64,000 bases of DNA, taken from positions 85,625 through 149,624 of the forward strand of contig JALOQK010000002.1 of NCBI GenBank assembly GCA_025453395.1, in the 5' to 3' direction. The position numbers and the translations under genes were made by a program. Within the stretch, counting starts at the first letter, position 1; each line of letters starts with the position of its first letter. Below are positions 733-53,695 of the stretch, one piece after another. This DNA comes from Candidatus Omnitrophota bacterium. GTDB lineage: Bacteria; Omnitrophota; Gorgyraeia; Gygaellales; Profunditerraquicolaceae. The notes under the pieces were generated by a model. It did not search any database and was not told where the DNA came from. It saw nothing but the letters and a program-made list of their open reading frames with translations.

Positions 733-1194
733 GTGGCAGTGCATAAAGCGGATAAGTTAAATAAAAACGAAAAAGCAAAGAAGTACGCGCTTTTTCTGTT
801 GAAGTTTTCACCGCGCACCAGGCTTGAAATGGTCCGCCGCTTAGAGGCAAAAGGCTTTGCAGCAGATGAAATAAAAGAGGCGCTCAACTTCTTAGAGTCC
901 GGCCAGTATGTAGACGATGCAAAATTTATCCGCTTGTATCTGGGGCAAAAAATAGACAAGCCGGTGCCGTTTGAGAAGATAAGAGAAGCCATTCTTTTAA
1001 AAGGCGTAGAGGAATCTTTTCTTGAAGAAGAATTAAAGAGTAATCCTGTGCCTGCCGAAGAAGAAAGAATATTTAATCTGGCGCAATGGAAATTAGAGAA
1101 AACCCCGGCTTTACAAAAAGAAAGATTAAAAGATTATTTTTTAAGGCAGGGCTTTGATGAATTGGATGTTGACAGGGCAATGGAAAGATTATGA
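733..1194 (+). CDS. recX: RecX-like regulatory protein (GTG start)
   Basis: 153 aa helical-repeat protein; it overlaps the alaS start by 4 nt, and recX-alaS adjacency is a classical synteny. Confidence 0.5.
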   Translation: MAVHKADKLNKNEKAKKYALFLLKFSPRTRLEMVRRLEAKGFAADEIKEALNFLESGQYVDDAKFIRLYLGQKIDKPVPFEKIREAILLKGVEESFLEEELKSNPVPAEEERIFNLAQWKLEKTPALQKERLKDYFLRQGFDELDVDRAMERL

Positions 1195-3824
1195 AAGCGG
1201 ATATTTTAAGAGAAAAATATTTGGATTTTTTTAAATCCAAAAAGCATAAGGTTGTCTTAAGCGATTCTTTGATTCCTGTTGATGACCCTACGGTTTTATT
1301 TACTCCTGCCGGGATGAACCAATTTAAAAAACAATTTATGGGGTTTAACGCAGGTTTTACCCGCGCGGTAAGTTCTCAGCGTTGCCTGCGCACTGATGAC
1401 CTGGATAAAGTGGGGAAAACCGCCGTGCATCATACTTTCTTTGAGATGCTGGGTAATTTTTCTTTTGGCGATTATTTTAAAGATGAGGCGATACAGTGGG
1501 CGTGGGAATTCTTAATTGAAGAATTAAAGATCCCCCAAGAAAGGCTTTGGGTTTCAGTTTACCAAGAGGATAGCGAAGCATATTTAATTTGGAAGGATAA
1601 AGTCGGTATCCCTAAAGAGAGAATTGTGAAGTTAGGCGATCATGATAATTTCTGGCCGGCAGATGCCAAAGAAAAAGGCCCCAACGGCCCCTGCGGCCCC
1701 TGTTCAGAAATATTTTATGACTTTGGAGAAGATGTTGGCTGTGGTGAGAAAGTTTGTGATCCGTCTTGTTCCTGCGGCAGATTTGCCGAGATTTGGAATT
1801 TAGTTTTTACCCAGTATAACCGCAAAGACGGCGGTATCTTGGAACCGTTGCCAAAGAAAAATATTGATACCGGTATGGGCTTGGAGCGCTTGACTGCGGT
1901 AATGCAGGGCGTGAAAAATAATTTCCAGACTGAATTGTTTCAGCCGATTGTTAAAGAAATAGAGGACAGAGGACAGAGGACAGAGGACAGAGAAAAAGAG
2001 AACCTGCTTTACGCGGTAAGCGACCATATTCGTGCTGTAGTTTTCTCAATTTATGACGGGGTTATTCCTTCTAATGAGGCAAGAGGCTATGTAATAAGGA
2101 AAATTATCCGTAAGAGCCTGATGCATCTTAGGGCACTTGAAGTGAAGTTGCCGTTTTTATATAAATTAGTCCCGGTTGTATCGCAGGTAATGCTTAAGCC
2201 TTATCCAGAATTAAGAGAGCGTCAGGAAAATATCACCCAGATAATCTTAAGCGAGGAAAAGGCTTTCATTGCCACTCTTGAAACCAGCGATAAAATATTG
2301 TCCGATAAGTTCTCGGATAAGAAAAACTCCCAAGAAGATATATTAGGTGTTTTGGCCTTTGAGCTTTATGACACAAACGGAGTTCCTTTTGAAATTACTA
2401 AAGATTGGTTGTCTAAAAATAAATTTAGTTTCAAAGAAGAGAAGTTAGAAACTTGTTTTTCTTCCTGTATGGAAGAACAAAAGGCCCGCTCTAAACAAAA
2501 AAGCGCGATGAAGGGAGACGTCTTTGGTTTATCGCACGCGCATTTAGCAGTAAAGAAGACAAACTTTTTGGGGTATAAGAGTTTTTCAGGAACAGCCAAG
2601 TTGCTTAAGATTTTAACTGGCAAAAGCCAAGGAAAGAAAATAAAAGAGGGCGAAGAGGCGGTAGTAATTCTTGATAAGACTTGCTTTTATCCTGAATCTG
2701 GCGGCCAAGTCGGCGACACAGGGCTTATTATTAAGGGTAAGAATATTTTTGAAGTTTTAAGTACGCAAAAAGTGGACAAGGTAATTTTGCATCACGGTAG
2801 AGTTAAAAAGGGAAGTTTCAAGCTTCTTGATCAGGTAACCGCAGAGGTAGACCAGAAGAGGCGTATGGATATTGCCCGTAATCATACTACTACTCATCTT
2901 TTGCAAGCAGCATTAAGAAAAGTGCTGGGTGAGCATATTCGTCAGCAGGGATCTTTAGTTTCAGAAGAAAAATTGCGTTTTGACTTTAGCCACTTTAAAG
3001 CTATAACCGGTGAAGAACTTTCACGCATTGAAGAAGAAGTGAATAAAAATATTCTGGAGGCAGTTTCTTTAGAAGTTAAGGAAATGCCAATTGCTATGGC
3101 CAAGAAAAAAGGGGCATTGGCGTTTTTTGGCGAGAAATATGAGGATAAAGTGCGCATGGTTAGTGTCGCCGATGTGTCGCGCGAGCTTTGCGGCGGGACG
3201 CATCTAGACAATACTGCGCAAGCTGGAAGCTTTAAAATTATCCATGAAAGTTCTGTAGCAAGCGGGGTTAGAAGAATTGAGGCAGTGACTGGTTTAGCTT
3301 CCTATAAGGCTTTTAAGAAAGAGGAAGAGCTTCTTGGAGATCTGGCTCAAACTTTTAATGTGAATCAAGAAAGTTTAAAAATAGCCGCCCAGAAAAGTTT
3401 AGCCCGGGTCAAGGAACTGGAAAAAGAATTAAGCGCTAATAAAATGACTAATCTTAAATCCGGTATTGACCAGATTATAAATAGTGCATGCGAGATAAAT
3501 GGCGTAAAATTTATTGGCGCATCTTTAGATAATCTTGACATACAGCTATTGCGTAAGAATATGGATTTGGTTAAGGAGAAAACCAATAACGCGGTTGTGG
3601 CCTTGGCATCAGCAACAGCCGGTAAAGTATTTTTGGTTATTGGGGTGACCTCGGATATTGCTGGAACAAAATTTGACGCTAATATGATCATTAAACAGGT
3701 GGGGCAATTTATCGGTGGTTCAGGCGGGGGAAGAGCGGATTTTGCCCAAGCAGGCGGCACAAAGCCAGAGAATATAGATTTAGTCTTTGACCAGATTAAG
3801 AAAATAATGGGGAATTTACAATGA
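1191..3824 (+). CDS. alaS: alanine--tRNA ligase
   Basis: 877 aa with class II AlaRS motifs, the editing-domain HxxxH/CGGTH zinc motif and a C-terminal DHHA1 domain; contains an in-frame heptamer repeat insertion at 1963-1990. Confidence 0.95.
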   Translation: MKADILREKYLDFFKSKKHKVVLSDSLIPVDDPTVLFTPAGMNQFKKQFMGFNAGFTRAVSSQRCLRTDDLDKVGKTAVHHTFFEMLGNFSFGDYFKDEAIQWAWEFLIEELKIPQERLWVSVYQEDSEAYLIWKDKVGIPKERIVKLGDHDNFWPADAKEKGPNGPCGPCSEIFYDFGEDVGCGEKVCDPSCSCGRFAEIWNLVFTQYNRKDGGILEPLPKKNIDTGMGLERLTAVMQGVKNNFQTELFQPIVKEIEDRGQRTEDREKENLLYAVSDHIRAVVFSIYDGVIPSNEARGYVIRKIIRKSLMHLRALEVKLPFLYKLVPVVSQVMLKPYPELRERQENITQIILSEEKAFIATLETSDKILSDKFSDKKNSQEDILGVLAFELYDTNGVPFEITKDWLSKNKFSFKEEKLETCFSSCMEEQKARSKQKSAMKGDVFGLSHAHLAVKKTNFLGYKSFSGTAKLLKILTGKSQGKKIKEGEEAVVILDKTCFYPESGGQVGDTGLIIKGKNIFEVLSTQKVDKVILHHGRVKKGSFKLLDQVTAEVDQKRRMDIARNHTTTHLLQAALRKVLGEHIRQQGSLVSEEKLRFDFSHFKAITGEELSRIEEEVNKNILEAVSLEVKEMPIAMAKKKGALAFFGEKYEDKVRMVSVADVSRELCGGTHLDNTAQAGSFKIIHESSVASGVRRIEAVTGLASYKAFKKEEELLGDLAQTFNVNQESLKIAAQKSLARVKELEKELSANKMTNLKSGIDQIINSACEINGVKFIGASLDNLDIQLLRKNMDLVKEKTNNAVVALASATAGKVFLVIGVTSDIAGTKFDANMIIKQVGQFIGGSGGGRADFAQAGGTKPENIDLVFDQIKKIMGNLQ
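1963..1990 (+). repeat. heptanucleotide microsatellite (GAGGACA)x4, in-frame inside alaS (encodes EDRGQRTEDR)
   Basis: Four perfect tandem heptamers read directly from the sequence. Confidence 0.9.
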
Positions 3825-5050
3825 AGATCATCCGTCCTACAGGCAAGCAATTAGAGAAAATATGCCAGCGCGCCTCTTGGCGTTCCAAGCGCGTGGAAGA
3901 AAAGGTCAAGAAAATAATTGAGGATGTGCGCCTTTTTGGCGATGAGGCCGTGCTTAAATATACCCGTAAGTTTGACGGGGTGCGTATGCCAGCGCGGCAG
4001 CTGCGCGTTTCACAGATAGAAATTAGCGGCGCCTATCAGAACATCACCCCTAATTTTATTCCCACTTTGAAGATGGTCATGGAAAATGTGAATAGATTTT
4101 ATCGTAAGACCATCAAGAAATCATGGAGGATAAAAGACGCGGACGGGATATCTTTGGGCGAGAATTATACTGCCTTAGAAAGAGTGGGGATTTATATCCC
4201 TGCCGGGACCGCGCCGTTGGTTTCTACGGTTTACATGACAGTTTTGCCTGCCAGGATCGCCGGGGTGAAGAAAATTGTGTTGGCCAGCCCTCCGGACAAA
4301 AATGGTTTTATTAACCCGCATATTCTGGTTATGGCGGATTTATTAAAGGTAGATGAGATCTATCGCGTGGGCGGAGCGCAGGCCATTGCGGCTTTAGCTT
4401 ATGGTACAAAGACTATTGCCCGGGTTGATAAAATTGTCGGGCCGGGGAATGTGTACGTAAGCGAAGCCAAGCGGCAGGTTTTTGGCAAGGTGGATATTGA
4501 TATGATTGCCGGGCCAACGGAGTTGGTAGTTATTGCTAACCGTTTGACTGATCCGGACTTTATTGTTTCGGACCTTAAGGCGCAGGCCGAACATAGCGCG
4601 GGATTGGCGATTTTAATTACCAATTCTAAATCTTTGGCCAAAGAAATAAACAGCCGTTGTTCCGAAGACAACGGGTATATTATTTTGGTCAAGAATTTAG
4701 AGCAGGCAGTTGAGATTTCAAATCAGATTGCTCCGGAGCATCTGGAAATTCTGGTGAATAACCCGAACCGTTTGGTAAAATTAGTGAAAAATGCGGGAGC
4801 AGTTTTCTTAGGGCCTTATAGCCCGGCGGCAGTCGGAGATTATGTGGCCGGCCCCAGCCACGTTTTGCCCACATCCGGCACAGCCAGATTTTTCTCCGGG
4901 CTTTGCGCAACAGACTTTATCAAAAGTATCCATGTTATCGGTTATTCCAAAAAAGCCCTTGAGAAAGTAAAAGAGCCTTTAGAGAAAATAGCCGGTATTG
5001 AGGGTTTGTTGCGGCACGTGGATTCGGTAAAAGCAAGGTTTAATAAATAG
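3821..5050 (+). CDS. hisD: histidinol dehydrogenase
   Basis: 409 aa with conserved HisD motifs (GPGNVYV, AEHSAG); ATGA overlap with alaS. Confidence 0.93.
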   Translation: MKIIRPTGKQLEKICQRASWRSKRVEEKVKKIIEDVRLFGDEAVLKYTRKFDGVRMPARQLRVSQIEISGAYQNITPNFIPTLKMVMENVNRFYRKTIKKSWRIKDADGISLGENYTALERVGIYIPAGTAPLVSTVYMTVLPARIAGVKKIVLASPPDKNGFINPHILVMADLLKVDEIYRVGGAQAIAALAYGTKTIARVDKIVGPGNVYVSEAKRQVFGKVDIDMIAGPTELVVIANRLTDPDFIVSDLKAQAEHSAGLAILITNSKSLAKEINSRCSEDNGYIILVKNLEQAVEISNQIAPEHLEILVNNPNRLVKLVKNAGAVFLGPYSPAAVGDYVAGPSHVLPTSGTARFFSGLCATDFIKSIHVIGYSKKALEKVKEPLEKIAGIEGLLRHVDSVKARFNK

Positions 5051-5057
5051 CTGGAGA

Positions 5058-5675
5058 TTGAATATGAAAAAAAGAAATGCTAGTGTAAAAAGAAGTTCGC
5101 GGGAGACGCAGATAGATATTAAGTTGGTGCTTGATGGCGATGGAAATTCCAAGATTGACACCGGCATTGGCTTGTTGGATCACATGCTGGAGTTATTTGC
5201 TTTTCACGGTTTTTTTGATTTGACGATTAAAGCAAAGGGTGATCTTAAAGTGGACATCCATCACACCAACGAAGATATCGGCATTGTTTTGGGGGATGCT
5301 TTTAAAAAAGCCCTGGGCGATAAGAAGGCCTTGCGCAGGTTTGGATCGTCGTCTGTGCCGATGGAAGATGTAGTCTCGCAGGTGGTGGTAGATATAAGCG
5401 GCAGAGGATTCTTTAATGGTATAGAGGGTAAAATTACGCAGGACGCTAAATTAAAAAATACCCAAGGTTATTCCTTTGAGTATGCAAATCATTTTTTTGA
5501 AGCCTTTGCAAAAAGGTTGGGGGTAAATTTAAGTATTAAGCTTTCAAGCGATAATGTGGATTTACACACTAACTTAGAGCCTGTGTTTAAAGCATTCGGC
5601 ATTGCCCTTGACATGGCCACTCAAATTGAGCCGCGCAGAAAAGGCGTCCCTTCCACAAAAGGAATTATTGACTAA
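5058..5675 (+). CDS. hisB: imidazoleglycerol-phosphate dehydratase
   Basis: 205 aa; IDTGIGLLDHML and histidine-rich metal-binding motifs. Confidence 0.93.
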   Translation: MNMKKRNASVKRSSRETQIDIKLVLDGDGNSKIDTGIGLLDHMLELFAFHGFFDLTIKAKGDLKVDIHHTNEDIGIVLGDAFKKALGDKKALRRFGSSSVPMEDVVSQVVVDISGRGFFNGIEGKITQDAKLKNTQGYSFEYANHFFEAFAKRLGVNLSIKLSSDNVDLHTNLEPVFKAFGIALDMATQIEPRRKGVPSTKGIID

Positions 5676-6284
5676 ATGATCGGGATTATTGATTATAATA
5701 TGGGCAATATCCATAGCGTGAATAAAGCTATTCAGGCTATGGGCGAGGATACTTTTGTCGCCGTAACTGCTGAAGGGCTTGACAGGTGTTCTAAGATTAT
5801 TCTGCCTGGAGTGGGCGCTTTTGATGACGCCATGGAGGAATTAAATAAAAAAGGTTTCACTAATCCGATAAAAGATCTGATTGCCAAGGGAAAGATTTTC
5901 TTGGGGATTTGTTTAGGCATGCAGCTTTTATTGGAAAAAAGCCAAGAGGCAAAAAAGAACAAAGGAATTGGCGTTATCAAGGGAGAGGTGAAGAAATTTT
6001 CTCCCTCTTTAGGCTTAAAGGTCCCGCATATGGGGTGGAATAATCTTAAGCCATTACAAAACGTCTGCCCCCTGTTTAAAGGCTTAGACCATAAGGCCCA
6101 GGTCTATTTTTGCCATTCTTACTATGCCTGCCCTGATGATAAAAAAGTAGTTGCTTCTACTACTGATTATGGAGTGGATTTTGCCTCGGTTATCTGGAAG
6201 GATAATATTTTTGGCGTGCAGTTTCACCCGGAAAAAAGCCAGGAGGCAGGTTTAATCATCTTGAAGAACTTTATAAGTTTATAG
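5676..6284 (+). CDS. hisH: imidazole glycerol phosphate synthase, glutamine amidotransferase subunit
   Basis: 202 aa class-I glutamine amidotransferase with GICLGMQ catalytic Cys and C-terminal HPE. Confidence 0.93.
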   Translation: MIGIIDYNMGNIHSVNKAIQAMGEDTFVAVTAEGLDRCSKIILPGVGAFDDAMEELNKKGFTNPIKDLIAKGKIFLGICLGMQLLLEKSQEAKKNKGIGVIKGEVKKFSPSLGLKVPHMGWNNLKPLQNVCPLFKGLDHKAQVYFCHSYYACPDDKKVVASTTDYGVDFASVIWKDNIFGVQFHPEKSQEAGLIILKNFISL

Positions 6285-6488
6285 AAATAGTTTTAAGTAG
6301 TATAGTAATATATCATTTAGCTAAAAACCATAATTAAAAATTCAAAGTTTTAAATTTTACGCTGTGATTTTACGTTTTGCACTTTTAGCTTTACATTATA
6401 CAATGTATTTTTAATTTTACGCTATAGTTTTACGCTTTTCGCTTTACGCTTTTAGCTTATAACTTATAGCTTACAGCTTACAGCTAAT
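6285..6488. repeat. intergenic repeat element, copy A of the ~66 bp unit family (TTTTAATTTTACGCTATAGTTTTACGCTTTTCGCTTT..CAATGTATTTTTA), about two units plus an AGCTTACA octamer tail
   Basis: Near-identical units are also present at 8942-9136 and 10949-11070. Confidence 0.85.
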
Positions 6489-7211
6489 ATGCTAATTATC
6501 CCAGCAATAGACATTAAAGACGGCGCGGTAGTCAGGCTCTTGCAGGGCAAGTTTGACAAGAAGACTGTTTATTCTAAAGATCCGCTTAAAACCGCGAAGC
6601 ATTGGCAAAAACAGGGCGCCAGCGTCATTCATATTGTTGACCTTGACGGAGCAAACAGCGGGCAGTCTGTAAATTTGCCGATTGTCAAAGAGATTGTGAA
6701 AAATACAGAAGTAAAGATAGAGTTTGGCGGAGGTTTGCGCAGCCTAAGGGCGATAGAAGCAATTCTTGATGCTGGAATTTGGCGGGTGGTTTTGGGGACT
6801 CGCGCTGCCGAGGATAAAGAATTCCTTAAAGGCGCCTTTTCTAATTTTAAAGATAAGGTTATTGTCAGTGTTGATGCTAAAGACGGCGAAGTCTTAACCC
6901 GCGGCTGGGAAAAGCACAGCGGAATTACAGTCTTGGATTTTGTTGCCCAGTTAAAGGCAATAGGTTTTAAAAATTTAATCTTTACGGATACCTCTAAAGA
7001 CGGTATGCTAAAGGGGCCTAATCTTAAGGCGGTCAAAGAGCTTCTTAAAAAAAGCGGGCTAAAGATTGTGGCTTCCGGAGGCATAACCGCGCTTTCGGAT
7101 CTGGTGAAATTGCGCGCCCTAGAAAAAGACGGCGTGGAAGCTGTTATTATTGGCAAGGCCTTGTATGAGGGGAAGTTTACATTACAACAAGCGTTAAGAA
7201 GTCAAAAGTAA
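6489..7211 (+). CDS. hisA: 1-(5-phosphoribosyl)-5-[(5-phosphoribosylamino)methylideneamino]imidazole-4-carboxamide isomerase
   Basis: 240 aa (beta/alpha)8 HisA protein, N-terminus MLIIPAIDIKDG; its last codons lie in the AAGTCAAAAGTAAA repeat array. Confidence 0.92.
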   Translation: MLIIPAIDIKDGAVVRLLQGKFDKKTVYSKDPLKTAKHWQKQGASVIHIVDLDGANSGQSVNLPIVKEIVKNTEVKIEFGGGLRSLRAIEAILDAGIWRVVLGTRAAEDKEFLKGAFSNFKDKVIVSVDAKDGEVLTRGWEKHSGITVLDFVAQLKAIGFKNLIFTDTSKDGMLKGPNLKAVKELLKKSGLKIVASGGITALSDLVKLRALEKDGVEAVIIGKALYEGKFTLQQALRSQK

Positions 7212-7253
7212 AAAGTCAAAAGTAAAAAGGTAAAAGTAAAAAGTAAAAGACAA
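7197..7253 (+). repeat. tandem array of 14-mer (AAGTCAAAAGTAAA-like, 2x7) x4, overlapping the hisA stop codon
   Basis: Read directly from the sequence; the same AAGTCA-type heptamer recurs inside hisF. Confidence 0.85.
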
Positions 7254-7300
7254 AAAAAATAAATCGTGAAAATAAAACTCTACAAAAAGGAGAGGGGAAT

Positions 7301-7768
7301 ATGAGAAAAGTTTTAGGTTTGGGGTTAGCATTAGTGGGTGTTTTAGCTTTAAGCGGCTGTTCCACAGTCTGCAGAAAACAAGTTAATCAGATAAATGAGC
7401 TAAAAAGCCAGGTGTCTTCGCTAAAATCAGAAATACAGTATAAGGATGATCAGATAACCCAGCTGCGTTATTCTGTTAGTCAGGCGCCGAGTGAAAAGTT
7501 TGTTGCGTCGCAAGCCGCGGTTTCTATGGGGGCAGCTATTCCTGAAGTGAAATCCCGCCCTAAGGCAAAGCAGATACAGGCTGCCTTGAAGAATGCTGGC
7601 TATTATAACGGGCCCGTTGATGGGAAAATCGGCAAAAGGACAAGAAAAGCTATCCGCAACTTTCAGAAAGATAATGGCCTGCAGGTGGATGGCAAAGTCG
7701 GCAAGGATACTTGGGCAAAGCTAAAGAATGCTCCGGAAAAGAAAGTAAGCGAGCAGAAAGTAAAATAA
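7301..7768 (+). CDS. lipoprotein with C-terminal peptidoglycan-binding (PG_binding_1-like) domain
   Basis: Signal peptide plus lipobox LSGC, a coiled-coil middle, and a C-terminal segment (YNGPVDGKIGKRTRKAIRNFQKDNGLQVDGKVGKDT) typical of PG-binding domain 1. Confidence 0.7.
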   Translation: MRKVLGLGLALVGVLALSGCSTVCRKQVNQINELKSQVSSLKSEIQYKDDQITQLRYSVSQAPSEKFVASQAAVSMGAAIPEVKSRPKAKQIQAALKNAGYYNGPVDGKIGKRTRKAIRNFQKDNGLQVDGKVGKDTWAKLKNAPEKKVSEQKVK

Positions 7769-7795
7769 GAGTTCAGCTTTCAGTCGTCAGCCTTC

Positions 7796-7836
7796 AGCTG
7801 ATAGCTGATAGCTGATAGCTGATAGCTGATAGCTGA
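7796..7836 (+). repeat. heptanucleotide microsatellite (AGCTGAT)x5 plus a partial unit, intergenic
   Basis: Perfect tandem heptamers read directly from the sequence. Confidence 0.95.
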
Positions 7837-7841
7837 AAAAC

Positions 7842-8615
7842 ATGTTAACTAAACGTATTATTCCCTGTTTAGACATCAAAGACGGCAGGGTAGTCAAGGG
7901 CGTGCGTTTTTTGGGGCTTCGCGATGCCGGGGATCCTGTGGAAGTGGCCCAGGCCTACGATAAACAGGGCGCGGATGAATTAGTATTTCTGGATATTACC
8001 GCGAGTTTTGAGAATCGCAAGACGCTGGTTTCTCTGGTAGAGAAAATCGCGCAAAATATCTATATGCCTTTTACTGTTGGAGGCGGGATAAGAAGCATTG
8101 AGGATATACGCGATCTTTTAAATGCCGGCGCAGATAAGGTGTCCATAAATACTGCGGCAGTAAAATTTCCTGATCTAGTTAGCGATTCGGCCAGGCGTTT
8201 TGGCAGCCAGTGTATAGTAGTAGCGATAGACGCGAAGTCAGAAGTCAGAAGTCAGAAGTCAGAGGTTAGAAAGTGGGAAGTGTATATAAACGGGGGAAGA
8301 ACTCCCACCGGCATTGACGCGGTAGAATGGGCAAAAAAAGTAGAAGAAGCAGGCGCCGGAGAAATACTTCTAACCAGTATGGATTATGACGGCACAAAAG
8401 ACGGCTATGATCTAAAGCTGACAAAGGCGGTCACAGGCGCAGTTAATATTCCGCTAATTGCTTCAGGAGGCGCGGGTACTTGTGAGCATATAAGCGATGT
8501 TTTTTTAAAGGCTGGCGCGGATGCCGCTTTAGCAGCTTCTGTTTTTCATTATCAGGAATTAACCGTGAAACAAGTTAAGCAATATTTAAGAACGAAAGGC
8601 GTAGCAGTAAGATGA
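7842..8615 (+). CDS. hisF: imidazole glycerol phosphate synthase cyclase subunit
   Basis: 257 aa HisF; carries a repeat-encoded insertion [13 protein letters not shown] in the loop before WEVY. Confidence 0.93.
8235..8269 (+). repeat. heptanucleotide microsatellite (GAAGTCA)x4 plus a degenerate unit, in-frame inside hisF
   Basis: Read directly from the sequence. Confidence 0.9.
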
Positions 8616-8941
8616 ATAAAAAATTGTACTTGAAAGATCTGAAATTTGATGATAAGGGTTTGATTCCGGCGATTGTGCAGGATTATAAGACTAATGAAGT
8701 CTTGATGGTGGCTTATATGAATTTGGAGTCTGTAAAAAGAACACTAAAGTCCGGCAAGACTTGCTTCTGGTCGCGTTCGCGTAAAGAATACTGGGTCAAA
8801 GGCATGACTTCCGGGCATTTCCAATTTGTAAAATCCGTTTGGTATGATTGCGATATGGATGCGCTTTTGGTAAAGGTGCGCCAGGTGGGCGCTGCCTGCC
8901 ATACAGGGAACAGGTCGTGTTTTTATAGGAGAATCAAGTAA
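8612..8941 (+). CDS. hisI: phosphoribosyl-AMP cyclohydrolase
   Basis: 109 aa with the CHTGxxSCF zinc motif. Confidence 0.9.
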
Positions 8942-9136
8942 GCGAAAAGCGTAAAGCGAAAAACGCAAAACCATAATTTAAAATTCAAAATTTTTAATTT
9001 TACGCTATAGTTTTACACTTTTCGCTTTTAGCTTTACACTCTGCAATGTATTTTTAGTTTTTAATTTTGCACTGTAGTTTTACGTTTTTCGCCTTTAGCT
9101 TTACACTCTGCAATGTATTTTTAGTACTCTTAAGAT
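8942..9136. repeat. intergenic repeat element copy B: GCGAAAAGCG-rich arm, AAAATTCAAAATT motif, then two tandem ~66 bp units
   Basis: Units at about 8993-9058 and 9059-9124 are near-identical; the upstream arm is a reverse-complement match to the TTTTCGCTTTACGC cores. Confidence 0.85.
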
Positions 9137-10642
9137 ATGTATTCTCTCACATTCAAAGAATTCTTAAAGCTGTCGCGCCGGGGAAACGTTATTCCTATAT
9201 ATAAGGAAATAAACGCTGACCTTGATACGCCTGTTTCTGCCTATTTAAAGATTGCAAGCGGGGATTTTTCTTTTCTTCTTGAATCTGTAGAAGGCCAGGA
9301 GAAAATAGCGCGTTATTCTTTCTTGGGGGCCAACCCTGCGCTTGTCCTGCGGGCCTATGGCAAAAAGATCCAGATTATTGATAAGGGCAGGGCATCTTCT
9401 AAAAGATTTACCGCTTCTAAAGACCCCCTTGATGAAATACGCCAGATCATGCAAACTTTTAAGCCGGTGGCTATAAAAGAACTGCCGCGTTTTTCCGGGG
9501 GGATGGTCGGTTTCATGGGTTATGATATGGGCAGGTTCTTTGAGAATATACCGGATAAAAATCCTGATAAGTTAAATCTTCCCGACATGGTATTTATGCT
9601 TACCGATACCATTCTTATTTTTGACCACGTTCGGCATACGATTAAGATTGTGGCGAATGTGATTTTGCCGGACAAGAAAAATCCTAAAGCCAGGTTAACC
9701 AAGCTTTATAAGAATGCGCTTAATAACATTACGCAGATGCATAAGCGTTTGAATCAACCGCTTGCTGGCAAAGAAATGGAATTCTTGAATTGCGCAAAGA
9801 AAGTCAAAGTTTCTTCTAATTATAAAAAGAGCGAATTCCAGGATATGGTTAGAAAAGCCAAAAAATATATTCGCGCCGGAGATATTATTCAGGTGGCTTT
9901 ATCTCAAAGGTTCAGCCTTGCCTTGTCCGGGCAGGCATTTGATGTCTACCGCAGGCTGCGCGGGATCAATCCTTCGCCGTATATGTTTTTTTTGAAATTA
10001 GATGATATTTCTTTGGTGGGCGCTTCTCCGGAACTTTTAGTGCGTTGCGAAGACGCAATTATACAGACCCGCCCCATTGCCGGGACAAGGCCAAGAGGCA
10101 AGAACGAAGAAGAAGACAAAAAGCTGGAAGAAGAATTGCTTAATGACGCCAAGGAAAAAGCCGAACATATTATGCTGGTAGATTTAGGAAGAAACGATCT
10201 GGGCCGTGTGGCAAAATCCGGCAAAGTCCAGGTCAGTCAGCTTATGAAGGTGGAGCGTTATTCGCATGTGATGCATATTGTTTCTGAAGTAAAGGCCTTG
10301 TTGGATGAGAAATTTGACGCCTATAGCGCCCTGCGGGCCTGTTTCCCCGCCGGGACAGTTTCCGGCAGCCCCAAGGTAAGAGCCATGGAAATTATTGATG
10401 AACTTGAAAACACCCGCCGCGGGCCCTATGCAGGCTGCGTGGGGTATTTTGGGTTTTCCCAGAATATGGATACCTGCATCACTATACGCACTATTGTAAT
10501 TAAGCAAAGAACATGCTATATTCAGGCAGGCGCCGGGATCGTAGCGGATTCCCGGCCTGAAAAAGAGTATTATGAAACTGTAAATAAGGCTAAAGCTTTG
10601 ATTGAAGCAATTAGTGTAGTCACTTGCCAGAGGCAAGTGTGA
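9137..10642 (+). CDS. anthranilate synthase component I family enzyme (TrpE/PabB-type chorismate-utilising)
   Basis: 501 aa with the conserved C-terminal chorismate-binding domain (GAGIVADS, PYAGCVGYF). Confidence 0.85.
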   Translation: MYSLTFKEFLKLSRRGNVIPIYKEINADLDTPVSAYLKIASGDFSFLLESVEGQEKIARYSFLGANPALVLRAYGKKIQIIDKGRASSKRFTASKDPLDEIRQIMQTFKPVAIKELPRFSGGMVGFMGYDMGRFFENIPDKNPDKLNLPDMVFMLTDTILIFDHVRHTIKIVANVILPDKKNPKARLTKLYKNALNNITQMHKRLNQPLAGKEMEFLNCAKKVKVSSNYKKSEFQDMVRKAKKYIRAGDIIQVALSQRFSLALSGQAFDVYRRLRGINPSPYMFFLKLDDISLVGASPELLVRCEDAIIQTRPIAGTRPRGKNEEEDKKLEEELLNDAKEKAEHIMLVDLGRNDLGRVAKSGKVQVSQLMKVERYSHVMHIVSEVKALLDEKFDAYSALRACFPAGTVSGSPKVRAMEIIDELENTRRGPYAGCVGYFGFSQNMDTCITIRTIVIKQRTCYIQAGAGIVADSRPEKEYYETVNKAKALIEAISVVTCQRQV

Positions 10643-10683
10643 ATCAGGCATAAACGCCAGAGGCCTGCCTGATTCAAAAAAAG
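10641..10683 (+). other. 10 bp perfect stem-loop (GAATCAGGCA..TGCCTGATTC) followed by an A7 tract immediately 3' of trpE-family gene
   Basis: Seen in sequence; it has no U-tract on the + strand, so it is not a canonical + strand terminator. Confidence 0.4.
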
Positions 10684-10696
10684 GAGGAAAAAAGAA

Positions 10697-10948
10697 ATGG
10701 CAGTTAATGTAAGGTTAAGAAGAATAGGAAAAAGGCCCAAGAACCGGGCGCATTTTAGAATTGGCGTTTATGACCAGAGAAGAGGCAGAGATGACCGGCC
10801 TATCGAAGAAATAGGTTTTTATAATCCCGGATCCGGGCAGATCAAGATTGATCTTGAGCGTTTAGGGTATTGGGTGAAAAACGGCGCTCAGCTTTCTAAT
10901 ACGGTCGCCAGCATTTTTAAAAAACAATCAAAAGCAGTTAAAGCATAG
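10697..10948 (+). CDS. rpsP: 30S ribosomal protein S16
   Basis: 83 aa with a typical S16 N-terminus (MAVNVRLRRIGKR). Confidence 0.93.
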   Translation: MAVNVRLRRIGKRPKNRAHFRIGVYDQRRGRDDRPIEEIGFYNPGSGQIKIDLERLGYWVKNGAQLSNTVASIFKKQSKAVKA

Positions 10949-11070
10949 AAGCGCAAAACGCAAAGCGAAAAATTTAAAACTATAATTCAAAATTAAAAAG
11001 TTTTTAATTTTACGCTATAGTTTTACGCTTTTCGCTTTTAGTTTTACGCTAACGTTAAGGAGGATGTTAA
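10949..11070. repeat. intergenic repeat element copy C (GCAAAACGCAAAGCGAAAA arm, AAAATTCAAAATT motif, one truncated ~66 bp unit)
   Basis: Shares a unit of 50 bp or more with copies A and B. Confidence 0.85.
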
Positions 11071-11071
11071 T

Positions 11072-11368
11072 ATGCCTACAGGCGCCCAAGCAAGCCCATT
11101 GATGCAATTTATTCCGCTGGCTATGATTTTTGTTATTTTCTATTTTCTGATCATCAGGCCTCAGAAAAAAAGCCAGCAGGAACACAAGGCGATGATAGAA
11201 AACCTTTCCAGGAATGATGATGTGGTTACTTCTTCAGGCATCCATGGAACGATTGTAAACATCAAAGATAAGACAGTTATCTTAAGGATAGATGACAATA
11301 CCAAGATTGAAATAGAGAAAAGCTGTATTGCTTCCTTAAAGAAACAGCCTGCTGCTGCGGCCAAATAA
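11072..11368 (+). CDS. yajC: preprotein translocase subunit YajC
   Basis: 98 aa with a single transmembrane segment and the YajC core; precedes secDF. Confidence 0.85.
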   Translation: MPTGAQASPLMQFIPLAMIFVIFYFLIIRPQKKSQQEHKAMIENLSRNDDVVTSSGIHGTIVNIKDKTVILRIDDNTKIEIEKSCIASLKKQPAAAAK

Positions 11369-11392
11369 AATAAGAAAGGTAGAGAAAAGGTT

Positions 11393-13594
11393 ATGGAAAG
11401 AAAGCTTCTTTTTAAGGCGTTTTTTGTGCTTTTGGTTATGGGATTATTCGCGTATTTTGCTTTTCCTTTGGATAAACGCATTAATTTAGGCCTTGACCTA
11501 AAAGGCGGGATGCATTTATTGTTAAAGGTGGACACTCAAAATCTTCCTGAAAAAGAAAAGCAGGATGCCTGTGACCGCGCCTTGGAAGTTATCCGTAACC
11601 GTATTGATGCTTTTGGCGTGCGCGAGCCGTCTATTCAGAAACAGGGATTAGATGAAATTGTGGTTCAGCTTCCCGGAGTTACCGATCGTGACCGTGCCTT
11701 GGAATTGCTTGGTAAGACCGCTTTATTGGAATTTAAAATCGTGGAAAATGACCCGGTAAAAGTAAAAGACGCTATTTCCGGCACTCCGGCCGCAGATGTT
11801 GAGGTAAAAACCCTGGAAGAGAGCAAGGAGCAGATTGTCCTTAAAAAAGATTCGGTTTTAACCGGAGGCGCTCTTACTAACGCCAGCGTTAGATTTGACC
11901 AGAGTTCTTTTAATGAGCCGTTGGTCGCCATAGAGTTTAATGCCGAGGGAGCAAAGAAATTCGCTGATATTACCAGTCAAAATATAGGAAAACGGCTGGC
12001 TATTGTTTTGGATGGCAAGGTGCAGTCGGCTCCTATGATCAAAGAGGCTATCCCTTCCGGACAAGCGGTAATTACCGGAAGATTTACCCCTGAAGAAGCC
12101 CAGGACCTGGCGATTATCTTAAGGGTCGGCGCCTTGCCGGCTCCGATGTATGTGGAAGAAGAAAGGACTATCGGCCCGTTATTAGGGCAGGATTCTATTA
12201 ATGCCGGCATCAAGGCCAGTTTAATCGGCGGCGCGTGCATTTTACTTTTTATGCTTATCTATTATTTAATCGCTGGCGTAGTTGCTAATATCGCGCTTGC
12301 TTTGAATATGCTTATTATCTTAGGCGGCTTGGGGATGTTGCCAGTTTTATTCCCGGGGATCTCCGCGACTTTAACTTTGCCGGGTATTGCTGGTATTGCT
12401 TTATCTTTAGGCATGGCAGTTGACGCCAATGTTTTAATTAACGAGAGGATCCGCGAGGAACTCGCCGCAGGCAAGACCTTGCGCAATGCTATTTCTAATG
12501 GTTATTCGCGCGCCTTTAGCGCCATATTTGATTCTAACCTTACTACCCTTGTGGCGGCATTTTTGCTTTTTCAGTTTGGCACCGGGCCCATCAGAGGTTT
12601 TGCGGTAACCTTGACCATAGGTTTGATCGCCAGCATGTTTACCGCGATTTTTGTCAGCCGGGTTATTTTTGAAGTTTTGGTATCGTTAAAGATCATTAAG
12701 TCTCTTCCTATGCTGCAGTTTATCAAGGAAACCAAAATTGATTTTATCAGTAAAAGATTTATCTGTTATACCTTGTCAGCTCTTGTAATAGGGGCGGGGC
12801 TTTTCTATTTCTTTAAGAACGGCAAGGCAAGTTACGGCATAGATTTCTCCGGAGGCCAGGTACAGGAGTATAGTTTTAAGAATCATGTTCCGGTAGATAA
12901 AATAAGGGTTCTTTTAAAAGAATCCGGTTATCAGGATGTTTCTATTCAGCAATTTAAGGATAATCCCAGAGTAGTTTTAATTAAAACTACTTCTGAAAAA
13001 AGCGATATTATCGCTAATAAGCTTAAAGAACAATTTCCTCAAGAAGATGTGCAGATTATGCGCATAGAAAAAGTTGGCCCCATAGCCGGAAAGCATCTGC
13101 AAACTAAGGCCATACAGGCGGTCCTCTGGTCGTTTGTCGGGATCTTGGTCTATGTGGGATTAAGGTTTAGGCATTTTGATTTTGCTATTGCCGGAGTTTT
13201 AGCTTTGGTGCATGACGTATTGGTGGCTTTAGGTCTTATGGCTATGACTGGCAGGCAAATTGATCTGTTAAGCGTAACTGCCTTTTTAACTATCGCTGGT
13301 TATTCTATTAATGACACAATTGTTATTTACGACCGGGTGCGCGAGAATATGCGCTTGGGTAAACGTATGAGTTTATATGAAGTGATAAACTTAAGCGTTA
13401 ACCAGACCTTGGCCAGGACTATCCTTACTTCAGGGGTTACCTTGTTTGTGGTCGCGGCTATTCTTTTCTACGGAGGAGAGGTTTTAAGTAATTTTGCTTT
13501 CGCGCTTTTTGTCGGGTTTATTAGCGGAGTCTATTCTACGGTTTATATAGCTTCGCCGTTGGTTTTATTCTTTAGCGGCAAAAAAGCCAAGTAA
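11393..13594 (+). CDS. secDF: fused protein-export membrane protein SecDF
   Basis: 733 aa; the SecD N-terminal region and periplasmic domain are followed by a SecF-type second half (IDFSGGQVQEY..). Confidence 0.9.
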   Translation: MERKLLFKAFFVLLVMGLFAYFAFPLDKRINLGLDLKGGMHLLLKVDTQNLPEKEKQDACDRALEVIRNRIDAFGVREPSIQKQGLDEIVVQLPGVTDRDRALELLGKTALLEFKIVENDPVKVKDAISGTPAADVEVKTLEESKEQIVLKKDSVLTGGALTNASVRFDQSSFNEPLVAIEFNAEGAKKFADITSQNIGKRLAIVLDGKVQSAPMIKEAIPSGQAVITGRFTPEEAQDLAIILRVGALPAPMYVEEERTIGPLLGQDSINAGIKASLIGGACILLFMLIYYLIAGVVANIALALNMLIILGGLGMLPVLFPGISATLTLPGIAGIALSLGMAVDANVLINERIREELAAGKTLRNAISNGYSRAFSAIFDSNLTTLVAAFLLFQFGTGPIRGFAVTLTIGLIASMFTAIFVSRVIFEVLVSLKIIKSLPMLQFIKETKIDFISKRFICYTLSALVIGAGLFYFFKNGKASYGIDFSGGQVQEYSFKNHVPVDKIRVLLKESGYQDVSIQQFKDNPRVVLIKTTSEKSDIIANKLKEQFPQEDVQIMRIEKVGPIAGKHLQTKAIQAVLWSFVGILVYVGLRFRHFDFAIAGVLALVHDVLVALGLMAMTGRQIDLLSVTAFLTIAGYSINDTIVIYDRVRENMRLGKRMSLYEVINLSVNQTLARTILTSGVTLFVVAAILFYGGEVLSNFAFALFVGFISGVYSTVYIASPLVLFFSGKKAK

Positions 13595-16229: not shown

Positions 16230-17136
16230 ATTCTGTATAGGGGTGTTTTTATTTTTGCTGTCAGCATTTTATCCCTGCTTTTTATGCGCCCAGCAGTATA
16301 AGATCGTGGCGGTAGTCAACCACGATGCTATCACTCAAAAAGACTTGAATGATTTTGTTAATTTCCTGCGCCTGCAATTATCCGAACAATTAAGCGGCAG
16401 ACAGCTTGAGGAAAAAATCCAGGAAATGAAAAAAGATCTATTGGACAGGCTCATTGAAGATAAGCTTATCTTGCAGGAAGCCAAGCATATGGGGATTAAG
16501 CCCGATGAATCCAGGGTTAAGGATAAGATAGCGCAGATCAAGAAAAAGTATCCTTCGGATAAAGACTTTCAGGAGGCCCTGATCAAACAGGGGCTTGCGC
16601 AGGAGGACTTAGAGAATAAGATCCGTGATCAGTATTTAAGTTATATGGCGGTTGAGACAAATATTAAGAATAAAATCCGCATTAACCCGGCGGATGTAAC
16701 TGATTTCTATCAAAAGAATAAGGATCAATTTATTATCCCTGAAACAAGGCAGATTCAGTCTTTGGCTGTTTCTGATTCAGGCAAGGTTCAGGAAATCTTG
16801 TCTCAGGCGAAAGAGGGGGCGTCTTTTAAAGACCTGTCATCCAAGTATGCTATTACTGCCGACAGGATGTCTGTTGGCGGTAAAGGAAAATTATCCGAAG
16901 AAATAGAAAAGGTGATATTTGATTTAAAAGAAAATGAAATCTCCAAGCCGGTCTGGCTTGCCGGGACTTATTATATTTTCAAGCTTGACAAAATAATCCC
17001 TTCCCAGAAAGAGGATTTTGAAGCCGTAAAAGGCGCCATCTACGATTATCTTTTTAACCTGAAGATGGAAGAGGGCATGTCTTCATGGCTTGCCGATATG
17101 AAAAAAAATTCCTATATCAGTATTGTCAATGATTAA
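16207..17136 (+). CDS. SurA/PrsA-like periplasmic chaperone with PpiC-type PPIase domain
   Basis: Signal peptide, SurA N-terminal-like domain and a parvulin-like segment; surA-pdxA-rsmA synteny as in E. coli. Confidence 0.6.
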   Translation: MNMRNLIKFCIGVFLFLLSAFYPCFLCAQQYKIVAVVNHDAITQKDLNDFVNFLRLQLSEQLSGRQLEEKIQEMKKDLLDRLIEDKLILQEAKHMGIKPDESRVKDKIAQIKKKYPSDKDFQEALIKQGLAQEDLENKIRDQYLSYMAVETNIKNKIRINPADVTDFYQKNKDQFIIPETRQIQSLAVSDSGKVQEILSQAKEGASFKDLSSKYAITADRMSVGGKGKLSEEIEKVIFDLKENEISKPVWLAGTYYIFKLDKIIPSQKEDFEAVKGAIYDYLFNLKMEEGMSSWLADMKKNSYISIVND

Positions 17137-18088
17137 AAAACCAAGAATTGCTATTACTATGGGGGATCCTTCCGGGATCGGCCCTGAAATTATTGCCAAA
17201 TCTTTGAATAAAATTAAAGGCTTGGCAGATTTTACAATTATTGGCGATGCCTTTGTTTTAGAAAAGTCCGGGTGCGACTTTAGAAAGAACAAAGTAAGGC
17301 TTGTGGATTTGAATAATGTTTCGCCCGGGGATTTTTGTTTTGGAAAGACCAGGGCTTCTTATGGCAGGGCCTGTGTTGATTATCTTGATGTTTGCGTGAG
17401 AATGGCAGCAAACAACCAAGTTGACTGCATAGTTACTTCTCCTGTATCCAAAGAGGCGCTAAGCATGGCAGGATTTAATATTGTCGGGCATAGTGAATAT
17501 TTCAAGAAGGCTTTTGGCGTTAAGAACATCGTAATGATGCTTCTAAACAAAAGTTTACGTTTCGCGCTTTTGACCAGGCATATACCCTTAAAAGATGTTT
17601 CCGGCAGTATTAATGCCAGCGGCCTAAAGCAGACATTTTGCCTTACCGTGGAATCGCTTAACAAGATGTTTTCCATTAAAACTCCGCGGCTTGTTATCTG
17701 CGCGCTTAATCCGCATGCTTCAGATAATGGCACGATAGGGGATGAAGAAAATAAAATCATTAAGCCGTTTTTGGCCGCAATAGGCAAAAATAAAGGTTAT
17801 TCGGTAAAACTTCTTCCGGCAGATGTGGCAATAAAAAAGATGGACCAGAAATTATTTGATTGCGCGCTTGCCTTGTATCATGATCAGGCGCTTATCCCCT
17901 TGAAATTGTCCGGGGATGATACAGGGGTAAATATCACCCTGGGGCTGCCATTGGTACGCACGTCGGCTTTACACGGGGTCGGTTTTGATATAGCCGGCAA
18001 GAATCTGGCGCGCCCCGATTCATTCATTACCGCAGTAAAACAAGCGGTATCTTGTTTCAAAAACAGCAAATATGCGCGTAATCGCTAA
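17123..18088 (+). CDS. pdxA: 4-hydroxythreonine-4-phosphate dehydrogenase
   Basis: 321 aa with N-terminal IAITMGDPSGIGPEI and the conserved metal-binding histidines. Confidence 0.9.
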   Translation: MSMIKKPRIAITMGDPSGIGPEIIAKSLNKIKGLADFTIIGDAFVLEKSGCDFRKNKVRLVDLNNVSPGDFCFGKTRASYGRACVDYLDVCVRMAANNQVDCIVTSPVSKEALSMAGFNIVGHSEYFKKAFGVKNIVMMLLNKSLRFALLTRHIPLKDVSGSINASGLKQTFCLTVESLNKMFSIKTPRLVICALNPHASDNGTIGDEENKIIKPFLAAIGKNKGYSVKLLPADVAIKKMDQKLFDCALALYHDQALIPLKLSGDDTGVNITLGLPLVRTSALHGVGFDIAGKNLARPDSFITAVKQAVSCFKNSKYARNR

Positions 18089-35874: not shown

Positions 35875-36708
35875 ATGGGTATAAAAAAATTCAGGCCCAC
35901 AAGTCCGTCACGGCGCTGGATCACTGGTCCGGATTTTACTGAGATTACTAAGGATTATCCCGAGAAGTCGCTTGTAACTGTTTTAAAGAGGACAGGCGGC
36001 AGAAATTCAAGCGGCCGTTTGACTGTCAGGCACCAGGGTGGCGGGCACAAACGTAAATTGCGCTTGATTGATTTTAAGCGCGATCTTTTGGATAAGCCGG
36101 CAAAAGTCCTTGCTATTGAGTACGATCCGAATCGTTCGGCAAGGCTGGCTTTAGTTGAATACCAGCCAAACCAGAAAAGATATATCATCGCTCCTCTAGG
36201 ATTAAATGTGGGAGATCAGATTGTTTCTTCAAATGACAAAGAAACAGAAATCAAGGTTGGCAATTGTTTGGTTTTGCGTTATATCCCTTCAGGCACGCTC
36301 ATTCATAATATTGAAATCCGCCCGGGCAAAGGCGCGCAGATTGTAAGAAGCGCTGGTTCAAGCGCGCAGATTATGGCCAAAGAAGGCGATTACGCGCATG
36401 TGCGTTTGCCTTCAGGCGAAGTGCGCTTAATAAGTTTAGACTGCCATGCGGTTATTGGGCAGGTGGGCAATGTTGAGCATGAAGCCATTTCTGTTGGCAA
36501 GGCCGGCCGTTCCCGTTGGATGGGTATTCGCCCGACAGTAAGAGGATTAGCCATGAATCCGGTTGACCATCCGCATGGCGGAGGCGAAGGAAAATCAGGG
36601 CAGGGTAATCCTCATCCAGTGTCCCCATGGGGCCAGCCGACTAAGGGTTACAAAACCAGGAAACCAAAGCGATATTCTAATAAATTTATAGTTAAAAGAA
36701 GAAAGTAA
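35875..36708 (+). CDS. rplB: 50S ribosomal protein L2
   Basis: 277 aa L2 with the conserved C-terminal block ([14 protein letters not shown]). Confidence 0.96.
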
Positions 36709-36711
36709 TTT

Positions 36712-36800
36712 AAAATTAAAAATGAAAAATCTAAAATTAAAATCTTTAGGAAATGGTTTTAAGGTAAATTTTGAATTTTTACTTTTTAATTTTGAATTTC
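36712..36800. mobile_element. ~89 bp AT-rich miniature inverted-repeat element (MITE-like): left arm AAAATTAAAAATGAAAAATCTAAAATTAAAAT, right arm reverse complement GAAATTCAAAATTAAAAAGTAAAAATTCAAAATTTAC, no cargo
   Basis: Imperfect ~30 bp terminal inverted repeats read from the sequence; sits in a 135 bp rplB-rpsS spacer of the S10 operon. Confidence 0.45.
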
Positions 36801-36843
36801 AACGAGCGTCTTTTAGTTTAATAAGTGTAAAAGCGAGGAAGAC

Positions 36844-44421: not shown

Positions 44422-44741
44422 AAATTAAAAATTCAAAATTAAAAATTAAGAAATAAAAGCAAAAAGATAAAAGCAAAAAGATAAAAGCAAAAAATATAGT
44501 AGTAAAAAAATTTAGTTATTTGCTCATTGGTAAATCAAATTTTCTTTTAAAGCTCAATAATTATTTATTTTTTATATTCTTAGGTTTTTAAATTTGAGAT
44601 TTTAGGTTTTTGTTTTAATTTTTTATTTTAAATTTTAAATTAACAACAGTGTTTTTTTTGATTTTAATGTTTTCTAATTTTGTTTTTATGTTTTTAATTT
44701 TGCATTTTTCATTTTAAACTTTAAATTAAAGAGGGTTTCTT
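44422..44741. repeat. 320 bp AT-rich noncoding element: left end AAAATTAAAAATTCAAAATTAAAAATT, a 14-mer tandem (ATAAAAGCAAAAAG)x3, right end reverse complement AATTTAAAGTTTAAAATGAAAAATGCAAAATTAAAA
   Basis: Seen in sequence; the ends resemble the terminal inverted repeats of the 36712-36800 element. Confidence 0.45.
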
Positions 44742-51990: not shown

Positions 51991-51991
51991 A

Positions 51992-52062: not shown

Positions 52063-52086
52063 GCCCTTTCTGGGCAAGGAGGACTA

Positions 52087-53648: not shown

Positions 53649-53695
53649 AATTAAAAAATAAAAATTCAAAATTAAAATACAAAATGCTGGTATAA

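Follow-up and report, generated by a model that had tools for sequence, protein, structure and literature searches.

Tandem heptanucleotide arrays in spacers, gene ends, and conserved enzyme genes of an Omnitrophota bacterium and its relatives

Heptamers are the commonest class of long simple sequence repeats (LSSRs) in bacteria, and a basis in polymerase slippage has been proposed for them (Mrazek, Guo and Shah 2007, to the extent related in PMC4679880 and PMC4692102). The genome of Geobacter metallireducens contains, both between and within genes, elements made of four heptanucleotides in tandem, with GGGACCG present at 49 sites and MTYCTGA at 16 sites (PMC2700814). TAACTGA repeats, sporadically distributed among Beggiatoaceae, cyanobacteria, and Bacteroidetes, are located in ribosomal-protein operons, beside start codons lacking a Shine-Dalgarno sequence, and over upstream stop codons (PMC4679880). 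Here we analyzed the heptamer arrays of a 64,000-nt stretch of a Candidatus Omnitrophota bacterium genome (assembly GCA_025453395.1, contig JALOQK010000002.1, positions 85,625 to 149,624), hereafter the window. The comparison set comprised the window and the 80 closest genomic loci, nearly all of them from Omnitrophota metagenome-assembled genomes (MAGs), 1.28 Mb in total. An initial annotation of the window had listed four heptamer arrays, namely within alaS, over the end of hisA, before hisF, and within hisF, and read them as tolerated slipped-strand expansions. In our best reading, Omnitrophota harbor heptamer-periodic DNA throughout the phylum, and these four arrays are its local representatives.

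Arrays in the window were detected by Tandem Repeats Finder and our own scans (Table 1), and all four were present where the annotation had placed them. Among perfect arrays of at least three copies with units of 4-15 nt, only period 7 was represented in the 64 kb, by three arrays versus 0.0 in 20 dinucleotide shuffles. Dense local autocorrelation was found at lags 7 and 14 only, and in the true spacers the autocorrelation peaked at lags 7, 14, and 21. The 59 kb of coding sequence contained exactly two period-7 arrays, those of alaS and hisF, versus 0.0 in codon shuffles, and none of other periods. No period-7 array was found in the 50-kb E. coli his-region control. The three perfect window arrays contain 4.3-5.9 copies and are tandem copies of one 5-11-nt unit beyond chance, which is what defines heptanucleotide LSSRs.

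The array at the end of hisA encodes the final four HisA codons (RSQK), and its AAG TAA gives the stop codon at 7209-7211, so the overlap with the stop, already pointed out in the initial annotation, means that the array itself supplies it. The C-termini of orthologous HisA proteins are similar in length to that of the window protein. The annotation had also attributed RSQK to the unit found in hisF, and the two units are indeed related (AAGTCAA in hisA and AAGTCAG in hisF).

The array in hisF, which was expected to encode an extra loop before the conserved WEVY, proved to be a 7-residue addition to a surface hairpin. Between AIDA and the following tryptophan, 31 of 76 relatives have a HisF segment of the baseline length, 6 residues (KKEGDH-like), and the window has 13 residues, a net gain of 7 amino acids where a surface beta-hairpin has its tip, directly behind the AIDAK motif and before WEVY. 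The HMMER alignment of the window HisF with the solved HisF-LUCA structure 4evz contained a 7-residue gap. In the AlphaFold model (mean predicted local distance difference test score, pLDDT, of 85.5), residues 135-143 make up a loop of low confidence that links strands 125-134 and 144-149, and these residues are predicted to form the hairpin tip. The translation of the array comprises 11 residues.

An insertion had been proposed for the alaS array as well, but this interpretation was rejected once the protein had been aligned with 50 orthologues and with E. coli alanyl-tRNA synthetase (AlaRS). The segment with the array has 41 residues versus 37-42 in most of the 50 orthologues, and it is 2 residues longer than in E. 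coli AlaRS 3hxu. A variable linker was overwritten with its length remaining normal, and the hisF array is the sole net insertion (+7 amino acids). Orthologues do not carry the array residues; therefore, the objection that the annotation raised against itself, that these residues could be conserved rather than repeat-derived, fails. Translation and tolerance of the arrays are supported, and the best reading is that they are tolerated passengers rather than adaptations of HisF or AlaS.

The count against expectation called for in the initial annotation was performed on the entire 1.28 Mb and revealed 64 period-7 arrays versus 0-6 arrays for any other period from 4 to 12. The repeat-seeding process that it had suspected across this genome is a heptamer process that is genome-wide and, in fact, phylum-wide. 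Perfect arrays numbered 24 at period 7 versus 17, 3, 0, and 5 at periods 4, 5, 6, and 8, respectively. Long open reading frames (ORFs) accommodated 37 of the 64 arrays, the other 27 being intergenic, and the commonest copy number was about 4-6. The arrays came from about 28 independent MAGs obtained with differing assemblers. Their density was over-dispersed among genomes (p ~0.001), and 52 of the 80 loci had no array at all.

Inside genes, arrays with differing units recurred at the same protein positions: near residue 261 of AlaS in six genomes including the window, near residue 125 of HisH in eight genomes, near residue 53 of PdxA in six genomes, near residue 173 of TrpE in two genomes, and in the HisF loop. 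Since the units at these shared loops are genome-specific, simple replication slippage is not a full explanation. Insert lengths are quantised at about 7 residues, that is, three units (21 nt). The PdxA segment occurs in length states of 35, 42, 49, 56, and 63 residues, the HisH segment in states of 36 and then 43 residues, and HisF protein lengths peak at 251, 257, 264-265, and 271 residues. HisF loops of 9-13 residues were left out of the array count because they mostly lack 7-nt periodicity. The reading frame is kept in all 81 hisF genes. No coding unit contains a stop on the sense strand, whereas stops are present in 15 of the 27 intergenic units, which supports a selection filter. In a neighbor-joining tree of HisF and HisA (484 columns), taxa with insert-bearing long loops were interspersed with those having 6-residue loops; the tree was used solely for this purpose because it is poorly resolved.

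Some observations at these sites concern other kinds of sequence. In the window, PdxA (gene 17123-18088) has 6 extra residues at about residues 50-65, making a segment of 41 residues versus the baseline of 35 at the PdxA hot spot; no periodicity is left, and this is probably a decayed heptamer-derived insert. Period 8 is the second commonest array period overall, and some inserts at the HisF site, in relatives L022, L033, and L066, are made of octamers (e.g., AACAGGCA). A 20-nt GC-rich palindrome, CCTGCCTGCCGGCAGGCAGG, unrelated to the heptamers, was found at 19 sites in the 1.28 Mb (in L024, L030, L033, L043, L061, L080, and others) and at none in the window. It is nearly exact across divergent Omnitrophota genomes, is mainly intergenic, and behaves like repetitive extragenic palindromic (REP) sequences. 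At the hot spots of heptamer arrays it is present in frame in HisH (L075), PdxA (L044, L080), and HisF (L038).

Units are shared within genomes. Unit pairs within one mismatch made up 13 of 51 pairs within genomes versus 53 of 1433 between genomes (odds ratio 8.9, Fisher p = 1e-7), and none of 2000 label permutations reached the observed within-genome sharing. An identical 32-nt block is present in hisF and pdxA of L034, and in L050 hisH and hisF share a 29-nt block that is likewise identical and has the same alternating A/G 14-mer pattern. In the window, the units of the hisA-stop and hisF arrays given above are one base apart, as are TAGCTTA before hisA and AGCTGAT before hisF. Besides this sharing, several differing units coexist within single genomes, in the 20-64 kb available for each. 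The alaS arrays of L030 (AGTGTCA) and L034 (AGTCGCA) are aligned in the same register, with the differences between them falling at identical positions in each unit, i.e., a concerted change occurred without change of length. The unit that forms arrays before the hisF ATG in the window, L027, and L055 is represented at that spot in L060 by a lone AGCTGAAAAG; therefore, local seeding also happens. The common consensus of coding units, RGTCAGA, had a rotation-aligned score of 151 versus a null mean of 139.6 and a null maximum of 148, but we did not rely on it because the requirement for stop-free units and hydrophilic codons could explain the score.

These data divide the interpretation of the arrays as tolerated slipped-strand expansions: tolerance stands, whereas stepwise slippage as the full cause does not. 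Intermediates with one unit more or less would frameshift essential genes, so stepwise slippage is not the whole story, and the start of an array by slippage from one or two copies appears impossible. Length steps of about 7 amino acids, units and blocks common to several sites, and the use of the same loops across lineages likewise make slippage alone insufficient.

Many of the arrays make up one of the two arms of a hairpin, a point absent from the initial annotation. In the relatives, HisF inserts of at least 75 nt (75-114 nt) are built of one array, a loop rich in A, and a second array of approximately reverse-complementary sequence, with folding z-scores of -4 to -10; HisF inserts of the single-arm type showed no folding. 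The two arms of one HisF insert pair at -25.6 kcal/mol versus -12.8 kcal/mol with the arms of other genomes, and the own arm was the best partner in 6 of 10 cases. Arm mismatches recur at the same place of every unit; therefore, each arm is homogenised separately. The hairpin at the lipoprotein-hisF junction of the window has a minimum free energy (MFE) of -37 kcal/mol (z = -7.1), while this junction is just 0-10 nt long in most relatives. Its AGCTGAT array is perfect at 7796-7836, and 5 nt separate the array end from the hisF ATG (7842). A (TCAGC)n/(GCTGA)n hairpin before hisF was found in three divergent genomes. The hisF, alaS, and hisA-stop arrays of the window are single-armed and unstructured (z ~0 for hisF and alaS).

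The spacer hairpins were also considered as intrinsic (Rho-independent) terminators and rejected as such: they are long, A/T-rich, and periodic rather than composed of a short GC-rich stem and a U tract. A scan of positions 6000-11500 for promoter and terminator consensus sequences found sites at chance level around the arrays and no terminator-like site at the arrays. In the Rfam scan of the window, just two tRNAs reached the gathering score, and no RNA family covered the spacers.

Copy-number variants, which the initial annotation suggested looking for, were not encountered. A contig from the Joint Genome Institute (JGI; sample 3300037461) that belongs to the same organism was 100% identical over 5842-9125, with every heptamer array unchanged, although the two assemblies may share reads. 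A metagenome scan for variants of the hisF flanks with a variable gap returned 0 matches, in a collection that does not include even the source contig.

Table 1. Heptamer arrays and heptamer-periodic hairpins of the window
Feature	Coordinates	Strand	Location and properties
Perfect (AGAGGAC) x4.6 array	1961-1992	+	Within alaS; translated as EDRGQRTEDRE in the variable linker; segment length unchanged
Degenerate T-rich heptamers (TTTACGC, TTTTAGC), then (GCTTATA/TAGCTTA)n	6416-6489	+	Reaches the hisA ATG at 6489; no obvious Shine-Dalgarno sequence
14-nt (AAGTCAAAAGTAAA) / 7-nt array, 14-mer x4.0, 88% matches	7195-7249	+	Spans the end of hisA; no predicted structure
Two-armed heptamer hairpin	7769-7841	+	Occupies the lipoprotein-hisF junction; left arm (NNTCAGC) x4, right arm (AGCTGAT) x5.9
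(GAAGTCA) array, x4.3 perfect at 8234-8263, x5.4 including degenerate copies to 8271	8234-8271	+	Within hisF; single arm
Two-armed heptamer-periodic hairpin	8936-9045	+	Directly after the hisI stop; (GCGAAAA)n, A/T loop, (TTTTCGC/TTTTACG)n; z = -4.8
Two-armed heptamer-periodic hairpin	10943-11071	+	rpsP-yajC spacer; MFE -35.7 kcal/mol, z = -5.4
A/T-rich two-armed heptamer hairpin	36700-36812	+	3' of rplB; z = -2.2
A-rich heptamer/14-mer arrays (44419-44493) and T-rich heptamer arrays (44586-44727), mutually inverted	44410-44741	+	secY-adk spacer
A-rich heptamer arm (53637-53695) and T-rich heptamer arm (54077-54124)	53637-54124	+	Around the PF05635 gene 53696-54076, leuD-leuB interval

The arrays are set in a series of plus-strand genes comprising alaS (1191-3824), hisD, hisB, hisH (5676-6284), hisA (6489-7211), a gene for a peptidoglycan-binding lipoprotein (7301-7768), hisF (7842-8615), hisI, trpE, rpsP, yajC, and secDF. 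All five G/C-containing heptamer arrays of the window are located within the 6.3-kb alaS-his segment (1957-8271), and the rpoBC and ribosomal-protein regions contain A/T-rich spacer arrays only. Shine-Dalgarno sequences were not obvious at the starts of hisA (6470-6489), hisF (7825-7842), and trpE (9115-9137), all of which abut repeat arrays, and were present at the lipoprotein gene (GGAGAGGGG) and yajC (AAGGAGG). A dispersed T-rich element, about 95 nt long and with a substructure resembling heptamers (TTTTACG, TTTTCGC, TTTTAGC), occurs at 6324-6418, 8967-9128, and 10977-11071, where it lies upstream of hisA, of trpE in two copies, and of yajC; no Rfam family matched it. In the hisI-trpE spacer, the hairpin is followed by a 67-nt tandem repeat (8991-9125), which is present in 2 copies in the window versus about 6 in the JGI assembly (L081 3150-3560), where the right junction is different; this may be either real copy-number variation or an assembly collapse. 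The gene of the leuD-leuB interval encodes a PF05635 "23S rRNA intervening sequence protein" and lies in the loop of a two-armed heptamer hairpin, since its flanking A-rich and T-rich arms are roughly reverse-complementary. This layout recalls rRNA intervening sequences processed by RNase III. Two tandem duplications of other kinds were also found: an 82-nt one, 99% identical, at 55665-55828, with 10-nt sub-repeats (AACCTCATTT) in the spacer before the gene at 55840, and a 43-nt GC-rich unit (ACACCCGGCGCAATTTGATGCGCCGGTG...) duplicated at 51991-52076 on the boundary of a spacer and the next gene.

The explanation that we prefer, and to which we give an even chance, is copying in a heptamer register, by slippage and short-patch templated copying, with selection retaining the products only in spacers, at the ends of genes, and in permissive loops. 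Copying in a 7-nt register during replication or repair would create the arrays and repeatedly renew them. Slippage in genes would survive solely as jumps of 21 nt (three units), and short-patch copying, being length-neutral, could operate within one array and between the arrays of one genome. Selection would remove every harmful array, so that the survivors are confined to spacers, the ends of genes, and a small number of surface segments where conserved enzymes permit them. At gene ends a stop-containing unit could supply the stop codon, as at hisA, while in permissive segments stop-free units would be translated in all three phases into a hydrophilic loop filler with a 7-residue period. HisF would have gained 7 residues at its hairpin tip in this way, and the AlaS linker would have been overwritten with its length unchanged. 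Two inverted arms would fold into a long hairpin that at tight junctions, such as that between the lipoprotein gene and hisF, keeps the stop and start codons spatially close, which may be why the two-armed form is tolerated there. We infer the copying mechanism, the enzyme, and the direction of copying.

Several points weigh against this explanation. Block sharing fits a mobile element equally well. Inside an essential gene, one or two copies are not enough for pure slippage to begin an array. Recurrence in the same loop could mean targeting instead of a selection filter. Arm complementarity is kept while the units differ between lineages, and the hairpins may therefore be selected, i.e., functional. 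The relatives are represented by 20-64 kb per genome, every locus being centred on the his region. No copy-number change in the heptamer arrays was seen between the two assemblies, and because these may come from the same reads, any ongoing dynamics of the arrays is hypothetical.

The sharing of identical 29-32-nt blocks by different genes of one genome, and of the unit GGACAGA by three different genes of three genomes, would also be expected of very small non-autonomous mobile elements, like REPINs, miniature transposable elements with inverted repeats (MITEs), or Rickettsia palindromic elements, copied by a trans-acting enzyme and marking permissive loops by their in-frame survivors. The 75-114-nt HisF inserts, which are strong hairpins of several sequence families, fit such elements, as do the entry of the CCTGCCTGCCGGCAGGCAGG palindrome into the HisH, PdxA, and HisF sites, the interspersion of insert-bearing and 6-residue-loop taxa on the tree, and the documented in-frame palindromic elements of Rickettsia (PMC10969869). 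We nevertheless regard mobile elements as rather unlikely. No family-wide consensus exists, units varying between sites and genomes; neither clear terminal inverted repeats nor target-site duplications were found, the flanks being just A-rich lysine codons; the alaS arrays replace sequence without adding length, contrary to insertion; and the AGCTGA array has a likely native seed. Less probable still are functional cis-elements under selection, either RNA hairpins acting in processing, stability, termination, or translational coupling, or tandem sites for RNA- or DNA-binding proteins co-evolving in each genome, the in-gene copies belonging to the same regulon. Positions conserved across the phylum with sequences that turn over and units alike within a genome could be read in this way, as could the hairpins exactly at stop/start junctions, the (TCAGC)n/(GCTGA)n hairpin of three divergent genomes, and the better pairing of own than of cross-genome HisF arms. 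In addition, hisA, hisF, and trpE adjoin arrays and lack an obvious Shine-Dalgarno sequence, as MacGregor reported for TAACTGA repeats. Elements with such functions should not be missing from 52 of 80 related loci and from many orthologous sites, nor exist as several units within one genome. The absence of predicted structure from the hisF, alaS, and hisA-stop arrays of the window, the lack of an Rfam match, and the chance level of promoter- and terminator-like motifs also speak against them, and the host genes (alaS, his, trp, pdxA) have no obvious common regulation.

A non-triplet unit in an ORF is the classic architecture of phase-variable contingency loci, and heptamer phase variation is known in Haemophilus, so copy-number slippage might be thought to act as an on/off switch of hisF, alaS, and other genes. 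This is very improbable: the hosts AlaRS, HisF, HisH, PdxA, and TrpE are essential or housekeeping proteins rather than surface or variable ones, all hisF genes are in frame, the arrays are identical in two assemblies, and the length states observed are about 7 residues apart, so that only in-frame states are seen. We give least credence to chance repeats or assembly artefacts. The genomes in question are short-read MAGs, and the 67-nt hisI-trpE repeat differs between the two assemblies; on the other side are the 0.0 arrays in shuffles, the arrays being in frame, their occurrence in about 28 independent MAGs from different assemblers, and their identity in the two assemblies of this organism.

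Compared with the described systems, the Omnitrophota arrays are closest to bacterial heptamer LSSRs, in which, as far as the sources cover them, tandem 7-nt units are the dominant non-triplet class, mostly intergenic and far above chance, with a polymerase-tied slippage register proposed. Unlike these, more than half of the Omnitrophota arrays are in frame in conserved housekeeping genes and recur in homologous loops across the phylum, with 21-nt length quanta, within-genome unit sharing, and frequent hairpin pairing. The Geobacter elements are similar in having about four tandem heptamers dispersed within and between genes. They differ in being GC-rich, with one consensus per family, and in being read as regulatory, while Omnitrophota have several units per genome; recurrence in orthologous loops, length quantisation, and two-armed forms have not been reported for Geobacter. 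TAACTGA and the short tandemly repeated repetitive (STRR) sequences of cyanobacteria resemble the Omnitrophota arrays in their placement at start and stop codons, in ribosomal-protein operons, and in sporadic lineage distribution, but each family has a fixed unit common to phyla and is rarely found inside conserved proteins, whereas Omnitrophota units are diverse and many are translated within enzymes. The STRR units that Mazel et al. reportedly described in 1990, CCCCAGT, TTGGTCA, and CAACAGT, and also TAACTGA, were not among the 64 array units; those of the window are AGAGGAC, GAAGTCA, AGCTGAT, and AAGTCAA/AAGTAAA.

Rickettsia palindromic elements (PMC10969869), the classic example of selfish DNA in frame, are in-frame palindromic DNA encoding an extra peptide at permissive positions of unrelated metabolic genes, comparable to the 75-114-nt HisF inserts of the relatives. 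They are about 150 bp long, with a conserved family sequence and peptide and no tandem 7-nt substructure, while the hisF and alaS arrays of the window are single-armed, 32-38 nt long, and without a family consensus. REP sequences and REPINs, which are tied to a RAYT gene and mobilised by RAYT transposases (PMC3116915), are also short dispersed hairpin repeats at gene ends that form within-genome families, but they have a conserved core and no heptamer periodicity and are extragenic and untranslated, in contrast to the 37 of 64 Omnitrophota arrays located in ORFs. Phase-variable contingency repeats share the non-triplet tandem unit in an ORF and differ in being polymorphic, with out-of-frame states, in surface or variable genes, whereas the Omnitrophota arrays are in-frame only and reside in essential or housekeeping genes. 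Our literature search found no paper joining Omnitrophota with heptamer or heptanucleotide repeats. Because of this and of the differences from the known systems, we assign the window arrays to heptanucleotide LSSRs and consider the Omnitrophota pattern new in the in-frame sites that recur, the length quanta of 7 residues, the sharing of blocks, and the pairing of arms.

One would expect selection to clear essential genes of non-triplet microsatellites, yet here they persist in frame, in 21-nt quanta, at the same loops of conserved enzymes across a phylum of uncultivated nanobacteria. The places occupied by the arrays provide a natural map of where AlaRS, HisF, HisH, PdxA, and TrpE tolerate insertions. 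The arrays offer practical markers for strain typing and call for caution in MAG assembly and annotation. They also sharpen the old question of why 7-nt units dominate the long simple sequence repeats of bacteria, since slippage alone leaves block sharing, length-neutral renewal, and paired inverted arms unexplained and is therefore insufficient. A possible but doubtful answer is a dedicated mechanism in Omnitrophota, and perhaps in cyanobacteria, Geobacter, and Beggiatoaceae, which writes or copies heptamer blocks of about 30 nt, maybe as inverted pairs, to new or existing sites including essential genes. If this is true, such blocks would effectively be the smallest mobile or convertible DNA known, and the arrays of AlaS, HisH, HisF, PdxA, and TrpE would be its footprints.

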